Virus record (IMG/VR): IMGVR_UViG_3300024346_003797
Span: 1 to 64,000 of that record
Length of the DNA stretch: 64,000 nucleotides
Strand: one strand, 5' to 3'
Origin: a virus
The translations under genes were made by a program, and so were the position numbers. Positions 2,929-12,540 of the stretch are shown here, one piece after another. The notes beneath the pieces are model-generated. The model ran no database searches, was not told where the DNA came from, and was given only the letters and a program-made list of their open reading frames with translations. Every line of letters begins with the position of its first letter. The stretch's first letter is position 1.

Positions 2929-4719
2929 TTAAATCTGTCCAGGAGCACCGCCAGGCGTATTACCTGCCATACCGGCTGCGTCATTACTGACTGGACCTGC
3001 TACTTCCATACCATCCAATCCACCTTCTGGTTCAGGTGCATTCATATCTTCACCGGTCTGTGTATCAGATTCAATATCACCCACTGATACACCAATACTA
3101 CGTAAATCACTACCTTGTGGGTCAATTTCAATTTCTTTATCATTTTCTTCACGCCACATTTTCTCATTCTTACTGATTTCTTCTTCGGTTAATCCCAAGA
3201 ATCGTTCCATAGCAAAACGCTTACTTATGTATGGATACTGTTCAATCGCAGTAAATGAACCGATTCGTGCTGTATCTAACTCACTTTGACGATAAGCCGC
3301 AAAGTTTTGTGGTGGATTAAACTGTAATTGAAATAAACCACTATCAATATTCAGTCCTCTCCAACGTAAGAATAACTTAAATTCTTCATCTAGCTTTTGG
3401 CTAATATACTTCTGTAGTCGTTCACAATATTGATTGAAGCGAAACTCTTGGATCATTGCTGTACCAACACGTCCGTCACTCATTGGAGTAGGATTGTCAT
3501 CTGGTCCAGTTGGAAGATAGCTACTTGGCACACGTAAACCACGTGCTAATCTGTTGTTAAAGTAACGCAAGTCGTCAATCTCACCCAAATTCTGTCCACC
3601 GGGCAACACTTCAACACTTGACCCTCTTCCATCAGCAGTAACTGGGAAGAAGTAATCTTCATTCATACTTAATGGATTGTATGACGCATCAACTACACTA
3701 CCACCGCCATGTGTACTTGGTATACGTCTTTGATGGATCTCATTTTTAATACGCTCAACAAAAGCCATAGCCAAGTGACTTGGCATATTACCAACGTCAA
3801 TCTTAAACATTCTACGTTCTGGAGCACGTTGCACACGATAGATAAGAACCGCATCTTCTAATAATTCTTTTTGCTTATATACCTTAAAGACATTCTCTAA
3901 AATACTCTGTCCAAAGGGCCAGAAGCGGTCTAGACCTTCTGTTAAACTTAGATGGACAACGTGTTTAGCATCAATGGCTGCTTCGCTTTGACCTAATGTA
4001 AAACGACTACCTGATGTATTGTATGGCATACTTGGAACCGTATATCCACCACCTGCTCCACCGCCGCCCGTACCGCCCATACCAGTTGCTGGATTAGCGG
4101 CAAAATCTGTATTAGTTTTAGTAGCTACTGATAAGTTCTGTAAGTTAATGTTAATATCTTTAATAACATATTGTTCAGGCTTTTTACCTTCACTTTCGTT
4201 CACAATAACTTTAATAACTTTAGTCATATCTACCCAATATAACTTAAAGTTTTCCGGGTCACGAACAAATATTTGGTCACCAAACTTAATAGTATTACGG
4301 AAGATTTTGAATGTTCTAGTTTCAAACTCATTGAGTTTACACCATTGTTGTAATTGAGTTTTTAATAGTTCAACTTCATGTTGAGTTGGTTCATCTTTGA
4401 AATCTAAGTCAAAAGGAGTTTTATTATGTTCATTTGTTTGTGTACTGAACTCAGATATAATGTCTAAACACGCATTAATCTCAGCGTCAACATCCATCAT
4501 TTCATATTGATTGTAACGTTCAATACGATTTGGATGACCTGTGTAAACTTCTGGTAAACGGCTACGATAGTTTTTATAACCCATTTCAGCGTTGTTATAC
4601 CCACCAGTGTCACTACCGTTTTGTCCTGGGCTACCATTCCATGCACCGGTATTGTTGTTAAATCCAGAGATGGGACTGGACATTCCAGATTTGTTTGAGA
4701 AGCGTTTTTTGTATGTCAT
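2929..4719 (-). CDS. Portal protein (T4 gp20-like)
   Basis: Motifs LEDAVLIYRVQRAPERRMFKIDVGNMP, EDYFFP, VEVLPGGQNLGEIDDLRYF, LRVPSSYL, EFRFNQYCERLQ. Confidence 0.96.
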   Translation of the reverse strand: MTYKKRFSNKSGMSSPISGFNNNTGAWNGSPGQNGSDTGGYNNAEMGYKNYRSRLPEVYTGHPNRIERYNQYEMMDVDAEINACLDIISEFSTQTNEHNKTPFDLDFKDEPTQHEVELLKTQLQQWCKLNEFETRTFKIFRNTIKFGDQIFVRDPENFKLYWVDMTKVIKVIVNESEGKKPEQYVIKDININLQNLSVATKTNTDFAANPATGMGGTGGGGAGGGYTVPSMPYNTSGSRFTLGQSEAAIDAKHVVHLSLTEGLDRFWPFGQSILENVFKVYKQKELLEDAVLIYRVQRAPERRMFKIDVGNMPSHLAMAFVERIKNEIHQRRIPSTHGGGSVVDASYNPLSMNEDYFFPVTADGRGSSVEVLPGGQNLGEIDDLRYFNNRLARGLRVPSSYLPTGPDDNPTPMSDGRVGTAMIQEFRFNQYCERLQKYISQKLDEEFKLFLRWRGLNIDSGLFQLQFNPPQNFAAYRQSELDTARIGSFTAIEQYPYISKRFAMERFLGLTEEEISKNEKMWREENDKEIEIDPQGSDLRSIGVSVGDIESDTQTGEDMNAPEPEGGLDGMEVAGPVSNDAAGMAGNTPGGAPGQI

Positions 4720-4746: not shown

Positions 4747-7700
4747 TTAAACCCTAGAATGCTTTAATAATTCAGCCTGTACATCATTACTACTTGACAG
4801 TATAGATATCATCGTGCTGAATTTATCATCCATAATATTGTATAGGTCAGCTAATAATCTATTATCATTTTCTGGTTGACTAGCAACTGTAGTATTAGTC
4901 GTTGTAGGTAATGCCGAACTTAAGTTTTCTTTGGTAACATTTTCTAATAATGTTTTAACTACCTTCAATTGATTTTCTGGAACCACTGCTTCTTTGCCGT
5001 GTAACATTACTGGATATCCAGATTCTGGACCGTCGAATACTCCTCCCATTCTAGCCATTTCAAAGTGTACCGGATCATTGGGTACTGTTTGAAATAATCC
5101 CTGAGCATTCATCGCCGCCACTGCTTTTGAATCATTATAATTCTGTATATCAACCGCCATACCACGCTCATGTTTACTAGTGCCAGGACGACCTATAGGC
5201 ATATCCTTAGCAGTTCTGCCCGGCCGCCCTGCGGCAACTGATTCATCCCAGAGTCTTTGTTGATCTTCTGGATCACGTTTAGCACTATTAATTGAAATTG
5301 TGCTACCAGTCATTGACTTAAATTCATTTGCCGCATTTATAATTTTAGACTTAATGCTATCATTTAACTGTTCGAAATTAGATTTACTTCCAGATCTACT
5401 TCCAAAGGTGAATAAGCTTTCGATTCCTTTAATAACTTCATTTCCGGTTGTAGTAAATGGATTATCTGAGGTTACAGTTGATGATGCTCCTCTAGTAGGG
5501 CGATTTGATTCTGTTCGTACAGTAGCTGATACCGGCGGTGATGAAGGTGTTAATGATTGTGTTGGTTGCTTTGTTGTCGGTTGTACTGGTTGAGCAGTTG
5601 GTTGCTTTGTTGTCGGTTGTACTGGTTGAGCAGTTGGTTGCTTTGTTGTCGGTTGTACTGGTTGTGCAATTGGTTGCTTTGTTGTCGGTTGTACTGGTTG
5701 TGCAGTTGGTTGTGCAGTTGTCGGTTGTACTGGTTGTGCAGTTGGTTGTGCAGTTGTCGGTTGTACTGGTTGTGCAGTTGGTTGTGCAGTTGGCGCAGGA
5801 GCCATACTTCTAGTGGCTGGGGCAGTAGTTGACTTAGGTGGTGCAGGTTGTGCAGTTGGTTGTGCAGTTGGAGCAGAAGGAACTGTGGGTTGTTTGGGCG
5901 CCGGCAATCCTCTGGCGGCATTACGTGTAGCAGTTTCTTCTAATCTTCTTGCTTTTTCAGCTTCTAATCTTGCTTTATGTTCTGCTAATCTAGCGTCAAT
6001 GGCTTCTTGTGACCCTCTACCTGAAGCTTTTTCAGCTTTCTCTCGGGTAGCAGTTGCAGTTTCAAGATTGGTTTGAGTAGTCTGTCTAGCTTCTCTTGCA
6101 GGTGCCGTAGTTGGTGCCGGAGTAGATGTAGTTGCAGGTGTAGTACCTTTGGTACCTTTGATTTGTATATCTCCTCCTGCTACCGGTTTAGCACCTACTG
6201 TGTTACTAAATTTAGTGACTGCTTTGTTAAACATATCACTAGCATCTTTATTTAATTTTGCGGCGGCATTAAATGTCCAAACAACACTATCCAATTTTTG
6301 TGCGGCCGCCTGTTGCATCCTTGTTGCTTCAACATTGTCTTTAGTACGTTTATCAGCACCTTCACCTGTTTTAGCATCTGCTTCTTTTTTTAGATACTCA
6401 CTAAGACTTATGTTCTGTTTAGTTGCTTCTTCATTGGCTTTTAATATTCTATTGTAAAAATCAATGTTAGTACCAGTTTTATCTGTTTGTAATCCTGATA
6501 GATCCGACCCAACTGCTTTGGCTGCAGCCAATTCACGCATTTGTTCTTTGCTACCTTTGGCAGCTTCAAGCAATACTTCTTCTCTGGATTTACCTGCTTT
6601 AATCGCATCTAATGCTTTTGAGAATTGTATATAAGCGGCTGAACTAGCTTCATCTGTAGGGCCACCACCGGCAGCACCTAATTTAGCTACACCACCGGCG
6701 CCTCTAGTAAGACCCTGTTGTTGTAAATCAACAGATAAATCATAATATTTCTTTAATCTTGCTTGCTCTACTTTGTCGCCTCTATTGGCTGCGTCTTCCA
6801 TTGCCGCACGAATTTCTTCGATAGCGTTAATTGCATTTTGTGCTTCTTCTTGTTCTTTTCTAGTTGCTCCGGTGAGCATTGCCATTTTATCTAGTTCTTC
6901 GATATAAGCAGATGCACCTCTAATTAAGTCTTTTGTATTTTTTTCTTGCATCAAACCCAAACGAGTTTGTTGAGCCATGTACTTTAATGTATGTTCACGC
7001 TGTGCGTCAGCAGTAACACCCATCTGTGCTAACTTTTCTCCAAATTCAGCACTCTTTGTTAGTTCTCCTGCAACTTCTGCAAATTGTTTAGCACCGGCGG
7101 CAGTAGTACCACCAAACATCTTTAAATCTTTTGCACTAGACATTAACATTTCGTTAAATTTCTCTAGCTCTGCAGTAGTCATGCCAAGTGTCTGAACAGT
7201 CTCAAATACTCCGGTCATGCCAGCGGCAGTGGTTAATCCAGCTTCACTTAACTTATTAAAACTATCAAATAGTTTATCATTTTGTTCGGCTGCAACTTTA
7301 TTTGCTTCAGCGAGAGTGGATGCCGCCATACCAAGCAATGCTAAAGCACCACCTGCTATTCTGGCTGCTATACCTAAACCAGGTATAAACATCATTGCGG
7401 CGCCAATGCCCTTCATAGCTGTAGTAACACTATCAGCAAACTCACTAATAGCTTTAGCACCTACTTTAGCACCACGTTCACCTTCATAAAGTGATTTGGT
7501 CATCACCTTAGTAGCATTGAACACACCTTCAAGACCAGCTGATACTAATTTATATGAAGCAGTAAGACCCATACTACCCTTAGTTGCTTCTACTATCTTA
7601 TTAGAAAACTCCCCAGTAATAGCTTTAGTACTGTTAAGCTTATCAGCCATGTCCCCAAAAGCTTTACCTGGTGCACCGGATACTTTAAGTTCAGCTAATT

Positions 7701-8262
7701 GTTTTTGTTGTTCTTTAGATAGTTCGGCAGTAGTGTTTATTATCTTGCCATTATTCTTTAAAAGAGTGCCATTTGATGCAACAATACCGCCCATAGCTTC
7801 AGCTTGTTTCTTAAACATATCTGCACGTTGTACAGTCAAATATGCTTCAGAAGTTTTCCATTCTGCTATTACTCTTTTTTGAGCATTATTTATTTCTAAC
7901 GAACCTTCAATAACATCACTTATTGATTTAAGTTCTTTTTGGAATAGTTCCTCTCTCTTTAGATTTACAACTTCTTCTTTAGCATGTTGTTGTTGAGTTT
8001 TAGTATATTGTCTATCTAACTCATCATTAACCTTCTTTTCAAGGTCTGCTCTATTTTTTTCAGCTTCAGTACGCTTTTTATATTCAGTGTCTATTTTTTT
8101 ATAGTTACCCGATGAGTCCTTGATAAAACCCTTTTGTGCCGCTAGTTGTTCTTCAGTAAGTTCTTTTTCTTCTGCTTTTTGACCAACCATCTGGCCCATG
8201 AACTCTGCAAGGGAACGTAATTGTTCATTAAGGGATTCTAAATCTTCATTATTAATTGCCAT
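4747..8262 (-). CDS. Tape-measure-like protein with P/Q/T linker and C-terminal M15-type (D-Ala-D-Ala/L-Ala-D-Glu) peptidase domain
   Basis: Long Ala/Lys/Glu helical body with a hydrophobic Gly/Ala segment (GIGAAMMFIPGLGIAARIAGGALALLGMAA). Zn-peptidase motifs SAKR..EDQQRL, SKHERGMAVD, DPVHF, then the TMP-type tail GGVFDGPESGYPVMLHGKEAVVP. Confidence 0.75.
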   Translation of the reverse strand: MAINNEDLESLNEQLRSLAEFMGQMVGQKAEEKELTEEQLAAQKGFIKDSSGNYKKIDTEYKKRTEAEKNRADLEKKVNDELDRQYTKTQQQHAKEEVVNLKREELFQKELKSISDVIEGSLEINNAQKRVIAEWKTSEAYLTVQRADMFKKQAEAMGGIVASNGTLLKNNGKIINTTAELSKEQQKQLAELKVSGAPGKAFGDMADKLNSTKAITGEFSNKIVEATKGSMGLTASYKLVSAGLEGVFNATKVMTKSLYEGERGAKVGAKAISEFADSVTTAMKGIGAAMMFIPGLGIAARIAGGALALLGMAASTLAEANKVAAEQNDKLFDSFNKLSEAGLTTAAGMTGVFETVQTLGMTTAELEKFNEMLMSSAKDLKMFGGTTAAGAKQFAEVAGELTKSAEFGEKLAQMGVTADAQREHTLKYMAQQTRLGLMQEKNTKDLIRGASAYIEELDKMAMLTGATRKEQEEAQNAINAIEEIRAAMEDAANRGDKVEQARLKKYYDLSVDLQQQGLTRGAGGVAKLGAAGGGPTDEASSAAYIQFSKALDAIKAGKSREEVLLEAAKGSKEQMRELAAAKAVGSDLSGLQTDKTGTNIDFYNRILKANEEATKQNISLSEYLKKEADAKTGEGADKRTKDNVEATRMQQAAAQKLDSVVWTFNAAAKLNKDASDMFNKAVTKFSNTVGAKPVAGGDIQIKGTKGTTPATTSTPAPTTAPAREARQTTQTNLETATATREKAEKASGRGSQEAIDARLAEHKARLEAEKARRLEETATRNAARGLPAPKQPTVPSAPTAQPTAQPAPPKSTTAPATRSMAPAPTAQPTAQPVQPTTAQPTAQPVQPTTAQPTAQPVQPTTKQPIAQPVQPTTKQPTAQPVQPTTKQPTAQPVQPTTKQPTQSLTPSSPPVSATVRTESNRPTRGASSTVTSDNPFTTTGNEVIKGIESLFTFGSRSGSKSNFEQLNDSIKSKIINAANEFKSMTGSTISINSAKRDPEDQQRLWDESVAAGRPGRTAKDMPIGRPGTSKHERGMAVDIQNYNDSKAVAAMNAQGLFQTVPNDPVHFEMARMGGVFDGPESGYPVMLHGKEAVVPENQLKVVKTLLENVTKENLSSALPTTTNTTVASQPENDNRLLADLYNIMDDKFSTMISILSSSNDVQAELLKHSRV
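5561..5793 (-). repeat. 36-bp coding tandem repeat, ~6.5 copies (AQPVQPTT[K/A]QPT)
   Basis: Unit gttggttgctttgttgtcggttgtactggttgagca and variants, head-to-tail with no spacers. Confidence 0.95.
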
Positions 8263-8323: not shown

Positions 8324-9148
8324 ATGAACACAAACCCATTAAAACAGTATTTTCGCCGTCCTGAAATATATTTGAAACTTCCGAGTGGAGGTAAGTTCTA
8401 TCCAGCTGGATCCATTGATTTACCTGATAATCACGAATTACCAGTGTATCCAATGACTGCAATAGATGAAATAACTAGCAAAACGCCGGATGCTTTGTTT
8501 AATGGAACTGCGGTAGTAGATATCATTAAAAGCTGTATTCCAAATATCAAAGATCCATGGTCCATCCCTACTATAGACTTAGATCCTATATTAGTAGCTA
8601 TCAGGGCCGCTAGCAATGGTACGATGTTGGATATTGATTCCACATGCCCTAACTGTAGTGAAGAAGCATCATACAGTATAAACTTGATTGGATTATTAAC
8701 AAGTTTGGAAGCAGGTAATTATAATGAATCGGTTACATTAAATGAATTATCGTTTAAGTTTAACCCATTTTCATATAAAAAAATAAACAACATTAACATG
8801 GTTCAGTTTGAGATAGAACAGTCTATTAAGAATCTAGAAAATATAGCTGATGCCGATGCTAGACAAGCTGAATCCAATTCAGTAATGCAACGTTTAAACA
8901 AGTTAAGTATGGAATTAATATGTGAATCTATTGAGCATATTGCAACTCCATCAGCAGTTGTAAGTGAAAAAGAATATATTTTGGATTTTTTAAACAATTG
9001 TGATAAAAGAACATTTGAACAACTTAGAACTAGTGCAGTAAAATTACGTGAATCATCACAATTAAAGCCATTGGATGTGAAATGTATTCATTGCTCACAT
9101 GAATATAAACAAAAACTAACGCTTAACGTATCTGATTTTTTCGATTAA
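8324..9148 (+). CDS. Baseplate hub assembly/tail assembly chaperone (T4 gp26-like)
   Basis: NPLKQYFRRP.IY.KLPSGG, VYPMTAIDEI, D...ILVAIRAAS.G, two CxxC pairs (CPNC, CIHC), C-terminal DFF. AGGAG SD. Confidence 0.75.
   Translation: MNTNPLKQYFRRPEIYLKLPSGGKFYPAGSIDLPDNHELPVYPMTAIDEITSKTPDALFNGTAVVDIIKSCIPNIKDPWSIPTIDLDPILVAIRAASNGTMLDIDSTCPNCSEEASYSINLIGLLTSLEAGNYNESVTLNELSFKFNPFSYKKINNINMVQFEIEQSIKNLENIADADARQAESNSVMQRLNKLSMELICESIEHIATPSAVVSEKEYILDFLNNCDKRTFEQLRTSAVKLRESSQLKPLDVKCIHCSHEYKQKLTLNVSDFFD
9136..9142 (+). other. Candidate -1 ribosomal frameshift heptamer T TTT TTC
   Basis: X XXY YYZ heptamer correctly phased in the last codons of the gp26-like gene (GAT TTT TTC GAT TAA). The -1 frame is open from 9136 to TAA 9372. 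Confidence 0.6.
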
Positions 9149-9195
9149 GGCTTCTATATCTCAACTCTGAAGATATACAGAAGCTGATAGATGAT

Positions 9196-9372
9196 ATGGA
9201 GTCAGAGAGTAAAGCCATAAAAAATGCTGCCCTTAAGTTTGCATGGTACATGCGTGGAGGTGCCAGCTATGAAGATATATTAAATATGTCCTCTGTTGAA
9301 CGAAATAATATTGGTAAACTAATAGAAGATAATCTTGACACTACTAAGAAATCAGGACTACCATTCTTCTAA
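9196..9372 (+). CDS. gp51-like baseplate hub assembly protein (58 aa from ATG; frame open from 9136), absent from the ORF track
   Basis: MESESKAIKNAALKFAWYMRGGASYEDILNMSSVERNNIGKLIEDNLDTTKKSGLPFF. The ..EDILNM...ER motif and position after gp26 resemble gp51-like proteins. No clear SD before the ATG. Confidence 0.7.
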   Translation: MESESKAIKNAALKFAWYMRGGASYEDILNMSSVERNNIGKLIEDNLDTTKKSGLPFF

Positions 9373-9418
9373 TCAATCCCGTAACTGTTCATTTATCAAC
9401 ATCGGGCTATCTATGTAA

Positions 9419-9460
9419 AGATGAACTTCGTTCATCTAAGAACTCACTTCGTTCGTTCTT
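9419..9460 (-). other. Two abutting C-GAA-G triloop hairpins (ssDNA-type structures)
   Basis: Minus strand: AAGAAC-GA-AC-GAA-GT-GA-GTTCTT (tandem G.A mismatches) followed immediately by perfect AGATGAAC-GAA-GTTCATCT. Confidence 0.7.
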
Positions 9461-9519
9461 TGTTTTTACGGTTATCTATTGTATTTTACTCTATATAATA
9501 TATGGACTATATTGCCGCT

Positions 9520-9861
9520 TTGAAGCCATGGTAGTGCTATTCAGCACTACCAATGGTTAAGGGAATTTGCCATGCCCGTCATCCTTTGTTATCTTTTCCC
9601 CGTCTAATTAGCTATTTGATGCTATTAAACGCTACCGGTTGCTCTGTAAAGTTATGGGACTGTAGTGAAGCTATCAATGGTCTTTCAATTGATTCTTCAG
9701 CAACGCACTTCTCACCCCGCAAAGATAAAGTAGGGATGAGCTTGTTGAGGGTTCGCTTTGTCGATTGCCCTCTCGGTATTCCATAGTTATCACTAACTAT
9801 GCTTACTCCAGATCCATCAGCGTTCTTACACGCATCTTCAAGGAGGTCTTGCAGCCAAGAC
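9520..9861 (-). ncRNA. Candidate large structured non-coding RNA (~340 nt), family not recognised
   Basis: At least 8 hairpins plus nested long-range helices found by hand. G-U wobbles and a GUGA (GNRA) tetraloop favour the minus strand. GC-richer than flanks. No convincing ORF. Confidence 0.65.
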
Positions 9862-9878
9862 AACGAATTTTTATTTGA

Positions 9879-10433
9879 TTATGTAGTTGGGATATTGATA
9901 ACAGTTTGAGTTGACGTTGTGTCTGGTGTTGCCGAATAGGTTTTTAATAATGTACTGTTGTGTAGAAAAAAGTCATCAAATTCAACGATTAGCCAATCGC
10001 CAAACTTGCTTGACGAATAATAGACAAAATTGTCTGTTATCCATGTTGAGCCGCATTGCACGGCAACATAACGACCTTTTCTATTAAACTTCATAAACAA
10101 TAAATTTACGTCACCTGTTTCGGCAACGTCCATTAATTGTTCAATCCATGTATTTATTACTTTGCAGTCGCCTGAAAGTAGTAAGTGAAAAGGAAAATCA
10201 GCATAAAACTTACATTCAATGTTCATCTTACTGAAACTTTGACCGGGTACAATATCACCTTTGAAAGAACGTACTTGTCCTTCATGTAATACTGCTGTTC
10301 TATGCTGATTTTTACCACCAATGTAAGCTCCGGATCCAGGTGCTCTTATAAAGCTTTCGCCATATAGGTCAGAAAGAAACTTTGCAACTTCTCTCTCAAA
10401 TCCTGATCCTTTAGCCTTCTGTGGTGATGTCAT
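9879..10433 (-). CDS. Holliday junction resolvase-like PD-(D/E)XK nuclease
   Basis: KAKGSGFEREVA, RAPGSGA, GDIV, IECK motifs of Hjc-like resolvases. Start re-assigned to ATG 10433 (MTSPQKAKG). Confidence 0.8.
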   Translation of the reverse strand: MTSPQKAKGSGFEREVAKFLSDLYGESFIRAPGSGAYIGGKNQHRTAVLHEGQVRSFKGDIVPGQSFSKMNIECKFYADFPFHLLLSGDCKVINTWIEQLMDVAETGDVNLLFMKFNRKGRYVAVQCGSTWITDNFVYYSSSKFGDWLIVEFDDFFLHNSTLLKTYSATPDTTSTQTVINIPTT

Positions 10434-10438
10434 GTTAA

Positions 10439-10445
10439 TACTTAT
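10439..10445 (-). promoter_or_regulatory. Late promoter motif ATAAGTA (leaderless configuration)
   Basis: GATAAGTA + 5 nt + ATG of the resolvase. Confidence 0.55.
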
Positions 10446-10467
10446 CTGTCTCTGTGTGTATTTGAAA

Positions 10468-12540
10468 TTATTCTGTATCAACCGCTGTTGAATAACTTGT
10501 AAAGCCGTTCTCTTTAATCACCTTAAGAACACTAGGCACCCGCCCGGCTAGTTCTTCACGGTGACTTACAAGCCAAATAGATTTTTGTCTGCGTCTGCTC
10601 ATGTCTTTAAGAATCGCAATAGCATTCTCAACACCCATCGTGTCAAGACCACTATCAATCAACTCATCAATAAACAATGTATTGATCGGGCGATACAACG
10701 ATTCCCATACATCTCTAAACGCAAAACTTAAGCCAAGAATCAATCTATTCCGCTCTCCTCGACTCAAGTTATCAAAATCAAGTTCACGACCAAGCTCGGT
10801 AATCTCAACCTGCAAATCATTCTGAAAGATAACTTGATGGGGTAAACCAATCTTATCCAAGTAATGTGTCAATCGTGCATTCAAGTAACTTAAATTCTGG
10901 TCAATAATCTTCTTACGAACAAAACTATCTTTGCTAACTAATAAATCTAACAAGAACTTCTGATGTTCCATTGTGCGTGTTAACTTATTGATAGCTTCAA
11001 AGTCAATCGCTTGTAGTGCTTGAGTTTCCATTTCAACTACCTGTTCACTATACGGGTCAGTCTCTTGTGATTTGTTATCAATTTGATTTAGAATGTTAGC
11101 AACTTCACTTGAGTGTTTGATTGCCTCAGCTTCAGTATCATAATGAGTAACAGGTTGAGCACCTATAGCTATAGGAGTCAGTTCACTTAGTTGTTCACTA
11201 AATGGGTTAGCCTCTTGCTTTTTATCTTCCCAAACTTTCTTTAAGTTAGCTACATCACCACTATGACGAATAGCTTCTGCCTCAGTTTTGTATGAGGGAA
11301 TAGGCTTAGTACCTAATACACTAACCAATGATTCATTGATTGATAATTGTGTTTCAAAATGAACCAATTCAGCACGTGCGTTCTCAAGTAGAGTAGTTTT
11401 TTCTAATGTGACCTCTAAATGCTTATCATCATGGAAGTCTTGACCACAAGCATAACACTTATGATCCTCAAGTTCTTTAACTTCCCGAACCAATTTGTCA
11501 ATTAATTTTTTTTCTTTTGTGATACTTTTGGTTAGGGTATCAATTATTGTTCCTATAGATTTTTGTTCTGCCTCATCGTGTAGCCAATCTTTTAAGTCAC
11601 TCCAGACTTTGAGTTCGGCTTCAATGTCATACTCATTTTTAAGAGAGTAAGCCTTATGTGCTATTGAAACATCTGTGTCATGTTTTTGTTGCCAAGCTGT
11701 AGACCGAGCAATCAACGCATTGTATGCATCCTGTGCTTCTTTTTGTTTAGTCCAAACACTCAAATCTTTGTGTGCTTGTAGTTCTACTTCAATATTAATT
11801 TTACTTAGTTCATCATATTGTAATGCTAATGATGTTAAATCATCATCGTGTTTCTTTAGCCACAATGTTTGTCTACGTTTCAATGCATCAATCTGCTCCT
11901 TGACACGTTTGTTAGCTTCTTCAATACCCTTAACACGATATTCTTCTTGCTGAATACTATCTTTACTATCACGGATCATATTCTTAATGACCTCAGCTTT
12001 TTCAGATAGTAATGTAATACCCAATAACTGTTCAATGATATCACGCTGGTCATTAGTTTTTAATGCTAAGAACGGTTCACTATATGTATTCAACACAACA
12101 ATATGTTTAAACATATCGGCACTCATGTGAATCACACTTTCAATTGCCTGTTGTGTTTCTTTGTTCTCGCCCTGTGCATCGTCTGTATTCTTTTGTAAAT
12201 CGTTGTTTACATAAAACTTAAGAATGTTTGGTTTACGACCACGTTCAATCTTATAGTCAACACCATCTACACTAAACTCTAGGGTAACCATCATACCCTT
12301 ACCATTAGTACGATTGACTAGATTATCTTTACGAATGCTATTGATTGGTACACCAAACAAGGCATAGCTAAGACCCTGAATGAGGGTTGTCTTACCCGTA
12401 CCATTACGAGCACCGTCACCACCTAAGTCTAAGTTTTCACCTAGAATAAGTGTTAAGTCTTGTCGGTCAAAACTAACAGCTTGTGTTACTTGACCTATTG
12501 ATAAAAAATTCCGTAATGTAATATTCTTTAATGTAATCAT
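10468..12540 (-). CDS. SbcC/Rad50-like ATPase (T4 gp46-like recombination endonuclease subunit)
   Basis: Walker A GARNGTGKTT, zinc hook CYAC, signature LSRGE, Walker B FIDE, H-loop VSH. Confidence 0.95.
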   Translation of the reverse strand: MITLKNITLRNFLSIGQVTQAVSFDRQDLTLILGENLDLGGDGARNGTGKTTLIQGLSYALFGVPINSIRKDNLVNRTNGKGMMVTLEFSVDGVDYKIERGRKPNILKFYVNNDLQKNTDDAQGENKETQQAIESVIHMSADMFKHIVVLNTYSEPFLALKTNDQRDIIEQLLGITLLSEKAEVIKNMIRDSKDSIQQEEYRVKGIEEANKRVKEQIDALKRRQTLWLKKHDDDLTSLALQYDELSKINIEVELQAHKDLSVWTKQKEAQDAYNALIARSTAWQQKHDTDVSIAHKAYSLKNEYDIEAELKVWSDLKDWLHDEAEQKSIGTIIDTLTKSITKEKKLIDKLVREVKELEDHKCYACGQDFHDDKHLEVTLEKTTLLENARAELVHFETQLSINESLVSVLGTKPIPSYKTEAEAIRHSGDVANLKKVWEDKKQEANPFSEQLSELTPIAIGAQPVTHYDTEAEAIKHSSEVANILNQIDNKSQETDPYSEQVVEMETQALQAIDFEAINKLTRTMEHQKFLLDLLVSKDSFVRKKIIDQNLSYLNARLTHYLDKIGLPHQVIFQNDLQVEITELGRELDFDNLSRGERNRLILGLSFAFRDVWESLYRPINTLFIDELIDSGLDTMGVENAIAILKDMSRRRQKSIWLVSHREELAGRVPSVLKVIKENGFTSYSTAVDTE

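Follow-up and report, generated by a model that had tools for sequence, protein, structure and literature searches.

A conserved pair of tandem G·A hairpins lies 3' of a large structured non-coding RNA gene in uncultured T4-like jumbo phages

RNA-primed origins with a hairpin on the displaced strand are represented by ColE1, in which RNA II is combined with a primosome assembly site, by the mitochondrial LSP/CSB region with OriL, and by the R-loop origins oriF and oriG of T4. The early promoters of the N4 virion RNA polymerase are DNA hairpins with a 5-7-bp stem and a GGA or GAA triloop. The classical setting of sheared tandem G·A pairs is Y-GA-R, and a kink-turn is formed where tandem sheared G·A pairs lie next to a 3-nt bulge on one strand. 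To our knowledge, natural roles of DNA mini-hairpins have been documented for just a handful of small replicons, and we know of no origins or other single-copy control sites described for uncultured jumbo phages. The DNA mini-hairpin GCGAAGC has a Tm of 76.5°C, and r(GCGAAAGC) has a Tm of 39°C (PMC13037366, Chemistry 2026). Mini-hairpins of the GCGNAGC/GCGNNAGC type were found at the complementary-strand origins of G4, St-1, and alpha3, at ssiA of RSF1010 (CCGAAGG), and at the N4 early promoters (PMC13037366).

The stretch of DNA analysed here, referred to as the window, covers the initial 64 kb of a viral contig of 77 kb from IMG/VR. CheckV puts the completeness of this contig at 22%, so it is a fragment of a jumbo phage of ~350 kb. 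The genes flanking the hairpin region are T4-like. The minus strand carries the portal gene (2929-4719) and a gene for a 1171-aa protein with a VanY domain (4747-8262), while the plus strand carries a gp26-like baseplate hub gene (8324-9148) and a small gp51-like ORF, which ends at 9372 and is convergent with the RNA unit described below. A non-coding stretch (9373-9878) follows, and then a PDDEXK/RusA-like resolvase gene (9879-10481, minus strand), beyond which the gp46-like, gp47-like, and gp55 late sigma factor genes are all encoded on the minus strand. The frame of the gp51-like ORF (9120-9372, plus strand) is open far upstream of its first ATG, from just past the gp26-like stop, and the gp26-like and gp51-like ORFs overlap in the relative L147 (3959-4828 and 4771-5052).

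A sequence-only reading of the window had proposed two tandem hairpins on the minus strand of the non-coding stretch, and both were confirmed at the letter level. Hairpin A (9438-9460, minus strand) reads AAGAAC-GA-AC-GAA-GT-GA-GTTCTT and comprises a 6-bp AAGAAC/GTTCTT stem, a tandem of sheared-type G·A pairs (C-GA-A / T-GA-G), a 2-bp AC/GT step, and a GAA triloop, its apex being ACGAAGT. Hairpin B (9419-9437, minus strand) abuts hairpin A directly and reads AGATGAAC-GAA-GTTCATCT, with an 8-bp AGATGAAC/GTTCATCT stem and a C-GAA-G triloop. The corresponding plus-strand letters are AGATGAAC-TTC-GTTCATCT at 9419-9437 and AAGAAC-TC-AC-TTC-GT-TC-GTTCTT at 9438-9460. The folding z-scores of the window sequence were -2.4 to -2.9, and since such single-sequence values are modest, the case for the hairpins was built on comparison with relatives. 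The GAA-triloop stem was rejected as a motif repeated in the window, because no other stem with at least 7 pairs and a GAA triloop was present in the 64 kb. A covariance model of both hairpins (R1) identified one copy per genome in the source record and in the two complete relatives, G001 and G002, the sizes of which are 348.7 and 364.2 kb.

The relatives used for comparison were 151 loci from two protein-anchored IMG/VR scans, representing uncultured phages of lakes, rivers, and similar waters. The distant relatives L147-L150 and L180-L203 were designated as clade II. No DNA-level match to the region was found among cultured phages using megablast and blastn. PA5oct and SCTP-2 were considered as cultured relatives and rejected, since they had only the resolvase in common, with 42% identity and a different layout; model R1 gave no convincing match in these two genomes. 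The pair was kept on one strand in more than 80 distinct variants from related giant lake phages. The core at 9414-9485 was far better conserved than its surroundings, being 97% identical in L089, whose gp26-like protein was only 69% identical.

In an alignment of 62 distinct relative tails fitted to the covariance model, 98.6% of the cells paired and changes on both sides were observed in 15 of the 16 pairs, while the MAFFT-only seed A1 gave 10 of 16. The covariation score of the 62 tails was 0.381, compared with 0.102 for shuffles and 0.035-0.051 for slid partners. Both-side changes were found in all eight helix pairs of hairpin A and in seven of the eight pairs of hairpin B (alignment A3), for which 18 distinct fully paired stems were counted among 70 clade-I variants. 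The unpaired TC/TC steps of the plus strand correspond to tandem G·A on the minus strand, and these steps were kept or multiplied while the adjoining pairs varied, as in C-GA-AC...GT-GA-G, C-GA-GC...GC-GA-G, GAATGA...GAATGA, and ACT-GA-GT-GA-GC-GATA-GC-GA-AC-GA-AGT. In the model-fitted alignment, their setting was always 5'-Y-GA-R-3', with a pyrimidine on the 5' side and a purine on the 3' side, and the pairs beside the GA steps flipped from C-G to U-A and from A-U to G-C without ever reversing their orientation. The few wobble pairs (L108, L104, L115, L126) were G·T on the minus strand and A·C on the other. Since the G·A steps were kept in the Y-GA-R setting and the wobbles were G·T on the minus strand, we concluded that the minus strand is the functional one. 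The proposed minus-strand specificity of the hairpins was therefore upheld, the G·A pairs and G-N-A loops existing only there, and the GNA loops and G·A mismatches were kept in relatives together with compensatory stem changes, as had been anticipated.

Two further structural candidates were rejected. A kink-turn did not fit, because the G·A steps were symmetric 2x2 arrangements without a 3-nt bulge in all forms and the extended forms had at most single-base bulges. A hammerhead-like CUGAUGA reading of hairpin B was ruled out, because GAUGA lies inside the covarying stem.

The hairpins lie at the 3' flank of a structured non-coding RNA of ~360 nt (9510-9870, minus strand), which represents an uncatalogued class. 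Using 37 sequences with less than 90% identity, RNAalifold predicted 74 pairs, 53 of which had compensatory changes, and the 177 G·U versus 22 A·C cells in the RNA body fixed the minus strand. Searches of Rfam with gathering and E-value thresholds returned nothing relevant, and no tRNA or tmRNA was found. In every relative with enough flanking sequence, the pair was located 3' of the RNA on the same strand, across deep divergence, at a distance of 25-130 nt from the RNA, with hairpin B starting 65-133 nt past the RNA 3' helix. The suggestion that an RNA module and the hairpins are physically coupled thus agreed with their conservation as one unit. An AT-rich tract had been pointed out between the two at 9472-9512; it is present in the window, and as the spacer from the RNA body to the hairpins (9472-9509, minus strand) it is variable in sequence and length. 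The structure, strand, single copy, and coupling to the RNA gene are established. As a separate observation, the RNA carries an invariant, anti-Shine-Dalgarno-like CCUCCUUGAG, which is predicted to pair with an invariant internal GGAG.

In clade II, the gene upstream of the unit encodes a GIY-YIG endonuclease instead of the resolvase, and the 215-aa gene downstream of it runs in the same direction as the unit in L150 and its relatives. L089 carries an inserted gene for a GIY-YIG homing endonuclease on the far side of the hairpins. Since the unit survives these changes of neighbours, the resolvase and convergent transcription are not part of its conserved design. Consequently, neither the setting beside resolvase/gp46/gp47 nor the convergent arrangement of two transcription units, to both of which the sequence-only reading had given weight, could be retained as a conserved feature, clade II having the GIY-YIG gene upstream and a co-directional gene downstream. 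The clade II RNA body ends in a 9-bp hairpin with a UUCG, UAC, or AUUC cap; then come a U-rich tract and a spacer of 25-45 nt, which are followed by a stand-alone 2-bp ACGAAGT unit, hairpin A (e.g., GA-GC-GTTA-GC-GA), and hairpin B with a GAA or GGA loop. One or two nucleotides past hairpin B, CTAAATAC or CATAAATAC matches a T4-type late promoter (e.g., L180:1471-1480), and late promoters of this CTAAATAC/CATAAATAC type precede late genes in these phages. Since the clade II pair is located between a terminator-like hairpin and a late promoter, it may lie outside both flanking transcripts. The clade-II RNA was not detected by nhmmer with the clade-I RNA profile, so the homology of the two RNA bodies is argued from their similar layout only. 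In L180-L203, the late promoter after hairpin B serves the co-directional 215-aa gene and then a 651-aa Ala/Gly-rich gene, and in several of these members a TTCATTTA motif is found ~35 nt upstream of the pair.

The apexes of the hairpins followed strict rules. Seventy-six of the 84 distinct tails could be parsed as Y-GA-R, 2 bp, loop, 2 bp, and Y-GA-R. The apexes among these 76 tails were ACGAAGT (36), GCGAAGC (9), GCGATAGC (8), GTGTTAAC (4), ACGTAGT (3), and GCGTAGC (3), while GCGACAGC (2), GCGTAAGC (2), GCGAAAGC (1), and GCGCAAGC (1) were rarer, and GCGTTAGC was found in L190/L197. Most loops in the relatives were G-N-A or G-N-N-A, and 71 of the 76 apex loops had G first and A last. A pyrimidine occupied position 3 in 14 of the 18 tetraloops (G-N-Y-A), which are thus not GNRA. 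The hairpin B loops of the 70 clade-I variants were GAA (47), GTA (11), GCA (1), and a few others, and the variants included the cores CCGAAGG and GCGAAGC. The GCGNAGC/GCGNNAGC mini-hairpin motif was therefore present among the relatives, the window itself carrying the ACGAAGT variant. Together with the non-GNRA majority of the tetraloops (14 of 18), these motifs accord with the earlier description of the hairpins as DNA-type. The loops in the adjacent RNA bodies are GNRA and UUCG. G·U accounted for 4 of 939 tail cells (0.4%) versus 6.8% of the RNA-body cells, but G·U avoidance was downgraded as a proof of DNA, since wobble is equally absent from the isolated hairpin at the end of the clade-II RNA, and a short hairpin that stands alone may accommodate it badly in either molecule. 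New in this analysis are the clade II layout, the strict Y-GA-R count, the 14:4 excess of non-GNRA tetraloops, and the null covariation between loop and RNA body described below.

We tentatively favour, at somewhat short of an even chance, the reading that the pair works at the RNA level, as a 3' tail or insulator of the RNA unit; prior expectation supports it, as do the position and orientation of the pair, which never vary. That the acting molecule is RNA, and that its job is 3'-end formation or insulation, are the parts of this reading that we infer. The hairpin pair would belong, as a conserved module on the 3' flank, to a new large non-coding RNA gene found in freshwater T4-like jumbo phages, and the strand with the same (minus) sense as the RNA would act in single, folded form. 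Transcription of the unit would pass through the A-rich spacer into the pair, and the two stacked compact hairpins, with their Watson-Crick steps, sheared G·A pairs, and G-N-A loops, would mark and protect the RNA 3' end. The pair would also insulate what comes next, which is the convergent late operon in the window and the co-directional late promoter in clade II, and it may additionally give a protein a G·A platform. On the plus strand, the reverse complement of hairpin A and the TGTTTTT T-tract would probably help to stop the convergent gp26/gp51-like late transcript.

In favour of the tail or insulator reading, the pair stays with the RNA on the same strand and always on its 3' side despite the changed neighbours, and no terminator is located between the RNA body and the pair in clade I. 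The wobbles, which would be A·C on the other strand, and the T-rich tail of the plus strand, which is kept where a convergent gene exists, point in the same direction. The pair resembles the 3' hairpin tails and intrinsic terminators of RNA genes in lying directly 3' of the RNA gene, on its strand and at the boundary with the next unit, and in having stems that covary. Unlike these, it has no U-tract, its AU-rich stems carry triloops and G·A pairs where the others have GC-rich stems with GNRA or UUCG loops, and its sequence conservation is unusually high. Of the two marks of an intrinsic terminator, the pair thus has the position at the 3' end of a transcription unit, being always 3' of the RNA on its strand, while the hairpin followed by a U-tract is lacking on the minus strand, where the letters after hairpin B are TTTACA, CTAAA, or TTAAA in every variant. 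A consensus terminator scan listed neither hairpin.

Further evidence also stands against this reading. The loop rules are DNA-type, and the 2-bp apical stems are stable as DNA and much weaker as RNA. G·U is nearly absent from the tail, and the clade II pair may be largely untranscribed. The loop of hairpin B showed no complementary covariation with any column of the RNA body, and a kissing or tertiary contact of the two was rejected. The RNA libraries bear on transcription of the locus to a limited extent. Pieces of the RNA body and the resolvase gene were present at low depth in contigs from four RNA-library studies, and the absence of contigs joining the RNA body to the hairpins among these short low-depth metatranscriptome contigs is uninformative either way. 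One relative metatranscriptome contig of 207 nt extends from the gp51-like ORF across both hairpins and stops ~25 nt inside the T-rich tract; this is a weak hint in favour of the tail or insulator reading and fits an end of the plus-strand mRNA in this tract, although DNA carry-over is possible.

A second reading, a close rival that we consider somewhat less likely, is that the pair is a single-stranded DNA signal. The unpaired minus strand would fold into extra-stable mini-hairpins that are read by a replication or transcription protein, and it could be opened behind an RNA-DNA hybrid, as a lagging-strand template, or by supercoil extrusion aided by the AT-rich flank. By analogy, the nearest models would be the sites at which priming takes place on the displaced strand when an origin is RNA-primed (ColE1, OriL, ssiA, G4). 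A more specific form of this reading, which we consider rather unlikely, is a transcript-coupled, strand-specific initiation signal, in which the RNA gene would open the duplex, the displaced RNA-sense strand would fold, and a replication protein would use the hairpins. The candidate user would be a primase, a helicase loader, or a clamp loader feeding the adjacent late promoter.

The resemblance to known mini-hairpins speaks for a single-stranded DNA signal. The apexes match GCGNAGC/GCGNNAGC exactly in many relatives, and the same motifs are found at the G4, St-1, and alpha3 origins and at ssiA of RSF1010 (CCGAAGG) (PMC13037366). In common with these initiation sites, the element has C-GNA-G or C-GNNA-G loops closed by a sheared G·A, 2-bp G-C stems, and, among the relatives, exact GCGAAGC, GCGAAAGC, GCGTTAGC, and CCGAAGG cores, the CCGAAGG and GCGAAGC cores occurring in hairpin B, and it is likewise strand-specific and single-copy. 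It differs in that the known sites belong to single-stranded phage or plasmid replicons with known primases (PMC13037366), whereas the host here is a 350-kb dsDNA T4-like phage; in addition, the window apex ACGAAGT has an A-T step in place of G-C, and the stacked tandem G·A steps are extra. The conservation of the stand-alone 2-bp ACGAAGT unit in clade II, the dominance of non-GNRA tetraloops, the near absence of wobble, and the single copy per 350-kb genome also argue for a DNA signal. The same holds for the clade II pair, which lies between the terminator-like hairpin and the late promoter and is perhaps untranscribed, and for the displaced-strand geometry, in which the hairpins are located on the RNA-sense strand past the transcript and the AT-rich tract.

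This geometry is shared with the RNA-primed origins, in which a transcript, an unwinding tract, and a signal on the RNA-sense strand follow in the same order; the correspondence is one of geometry only. In contrast to such origins, the RNA here is a heavily folded molecule of 360 nt with its own conserved architecture, and no skew signal was seen. A GC-skew inflection at the element had been suggested as a sign of an origin, but in G002 (364 kb) the skew turned at ~190 and ~335 kb, while the element is located at 293.4 kb. The absence of a turn at the element is a weak test, since skew in such phages mostly tracks transcription. The ends of G002 share a repeat of 127 bp that stems from assembly overlap, and the assembly is circular, so it carries no information on physical ends. 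No match to a RepB'-type primase (PF16793) or a DnaG zinc ribbon (PF01807) was found in the two complete relatives G001 and G002, the RepB' family being also absent from the control genomes. Moreover, a 360-nt RNA with 53 covarying pairs far exceeds the need of a primer, A-rich RNA forms weak hybrids, and sheared G·A pairs and loops closed by G...A are known in RNA too. Functional single-stranded DNA hairpins are rare in dsDNA phages, which also counts against this reading. The bipartite RNA and single-stranded DNA element of the sequence-only reading was thus supported in part: the coupling, the strand, and the DNA mini-hairpin rules stood, while the skew inflection, the resolvase/gp46/gp47 setting, and the convergence did not.

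The pair was also compared with the hairpin promoters of N4, with which it shares a purine-rich 3-nt loop closed by C-G, GGA loops being present in some clade II variants. It differs from the N4 early promoters in its 8-bp stem and in its copy number. While the latter occur in several copies upstream of early genes and are used by a T7-like virion RNA polymerase, the element was found once per genome. A T7/N4-type RNA polymerase (PF00940) was not found in G001 and G002, although its absence is not proven, since the control genomes also lacked the family.

We consider it improbable that the pair is merely a bidirectional intrinsic terminator for two converging units. The pair does lie between convergent genes in the window, its stems, being perfectly Watson-Crick, would form in either transcript, the reverse complement of hairpin A is followed by a T-tract on the plus strand, and one RNA-library contig ends in the T-rich tract. 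However, the conserved G·A pairs become U·C and C·U mismatches in the plus-strand transcript and weaken the hairpin before the T-tract, which has only 2 G-C pairs besides its U·C mismatches, and the minus strand has no U-tract, neither hairpin being listed by the consensus scan. The pair also persists in clade II with a co-directional downstream gene, and its conservation goes far beyond the need of a terminator (97% for the core in L089 against 69% for the gp26-like protein). Since the G·A rule, the extreme conservation, and the clade II context are left unexplained, a plain bidirectional terminator was disfavoured. A canonical two-way terminator with a 10-bp stem between an A-run and a T-run is located at 2621-2645 of the window, indicating that the phage uses ordinary intrinsic terminators elsewhere.

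Finally, a double-stranded DNA binding site, in which the two GAACGAAGT repeats, at a distance of 21 bp or two helical turns, would act as iterons and the palindromes would be incidental, is very improbable: the direct repeat ACTTCGTTC does occur at 9425-9433 and 9446-9454 with a spacing of 21 bp and CGAAG is the most invariant part, but the stems vary freely provided that pairing is kept (15 of 16 pairs), which a duplex site does not demand, the CGAAG-CGAAG spacing shifts greatly in the extended hairpin A forms, and the Y-GA-R orientation rule is sensible only for a folded strand.

The element is a compact signal with exact rules, comprising Y-GA-R steps, G-N-A loops, and two abutting hairpins in one copy per genome, and it is tied to a new large RNA and kept in abundant lake phages of a broad group. 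If the pair acts as an RNA tail or insulator, as we tentatively prefer, it would be a 3'-end module that is unusual in lacking a U-tract, and it may point to the protein that partners the RNA. Acting as DNA, it would represent a new kind of origin or loading site and provide a handle on the start of replication or late transcription in these phages. A single-stranded DNA initiation signal would give a T4-like jumbo phage with a ColE1- or OriL-style origin module, and it would provide the first natural example of a large dsDNA virus that uses stacked sheared-G·A DNA hairpins as a genomic signal. Either way, a testable 42-nt motif and a covariance model are available for finding the RNA unit in metagenomes.

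Several motifs flank the pair. An A-rich run with ACCGTAA is located just 5' of hairpin A (9461-9471, minus strand); on the plus strand it reads TGTTTTTACGG and constitutes the T-tract after the reverse complement of hairpin A. Such T-rich tails (AGTTTTTAC, ATTTTTTAC, AATCTTTAC) were kept in the relatives that have a convergent late gene. CCGTAA (9379-9384) and TTACGG (9466-9471), which had been described as enclosing the hairpins, are present in the window, but a long-range helix between them was rejected, since it had no double changes, was broken in L014, L053, and L114, and was absent in many relatives, being missing wherever the segment 9373-9418 was missing. The two TATCTAT direct repeats noticed earlier do flank the pair at 9408-9414 and 9473-9479, and the repeat search extended them to GG(C/T)TATCTAT (family D5, strandless, 9405-9414 and 9470-9479). 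The minus-strand motif ATAGATAACC(C)GTAA was kept on both sides of the pair in close relatives only.

Between hairpin B and the stop codon of the gp51-like ORF, the minus strand carries the conserved motif GATAAATGAACAGTTACGG with a weak local hairpin CCCG...CGGG, designated hairpin C (9379-9403). Regular-expression matches to GATAAATGAACAGTTACGG with at most 1 mismatch were obtained in 60 of the 70 variants, a few of them loose, and the motif was absent in L106, L121, L124, L130, L142, and L144. Within the same segment of the minus strand, ATAAATGA is one base off the phage late promoter consensus (G/T)ATAAATA and points antisense into the gp51/gp26-like genes. The GATAAATGAACAGTTACGG region may represent a late promoter in antisense orientation, a relic, or a third hairpin of which it forms the loop.

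Homing endonuclease genes of the GIY-YIG type were found beside the highly conserved RNA-hairpin unit in three arrangements (L089:5116-5628, plus strand; L147:6646-7086, minus strand; L150:7632-8066, minus strand), which suggests that the unit is a favoured homing target or landing site. In addition, a metatranscriptome contig from the RNA run X17 joins position 10038 back to 9581, a step back of 458 with a 4-nt overlap at a depth of 5.9, so that the resolvase gene and the middle of the RNA body are connected in permuted order. A chimera or template switch may explain this junction, as may a rearranged relative or an RNA that is circular or tandem.
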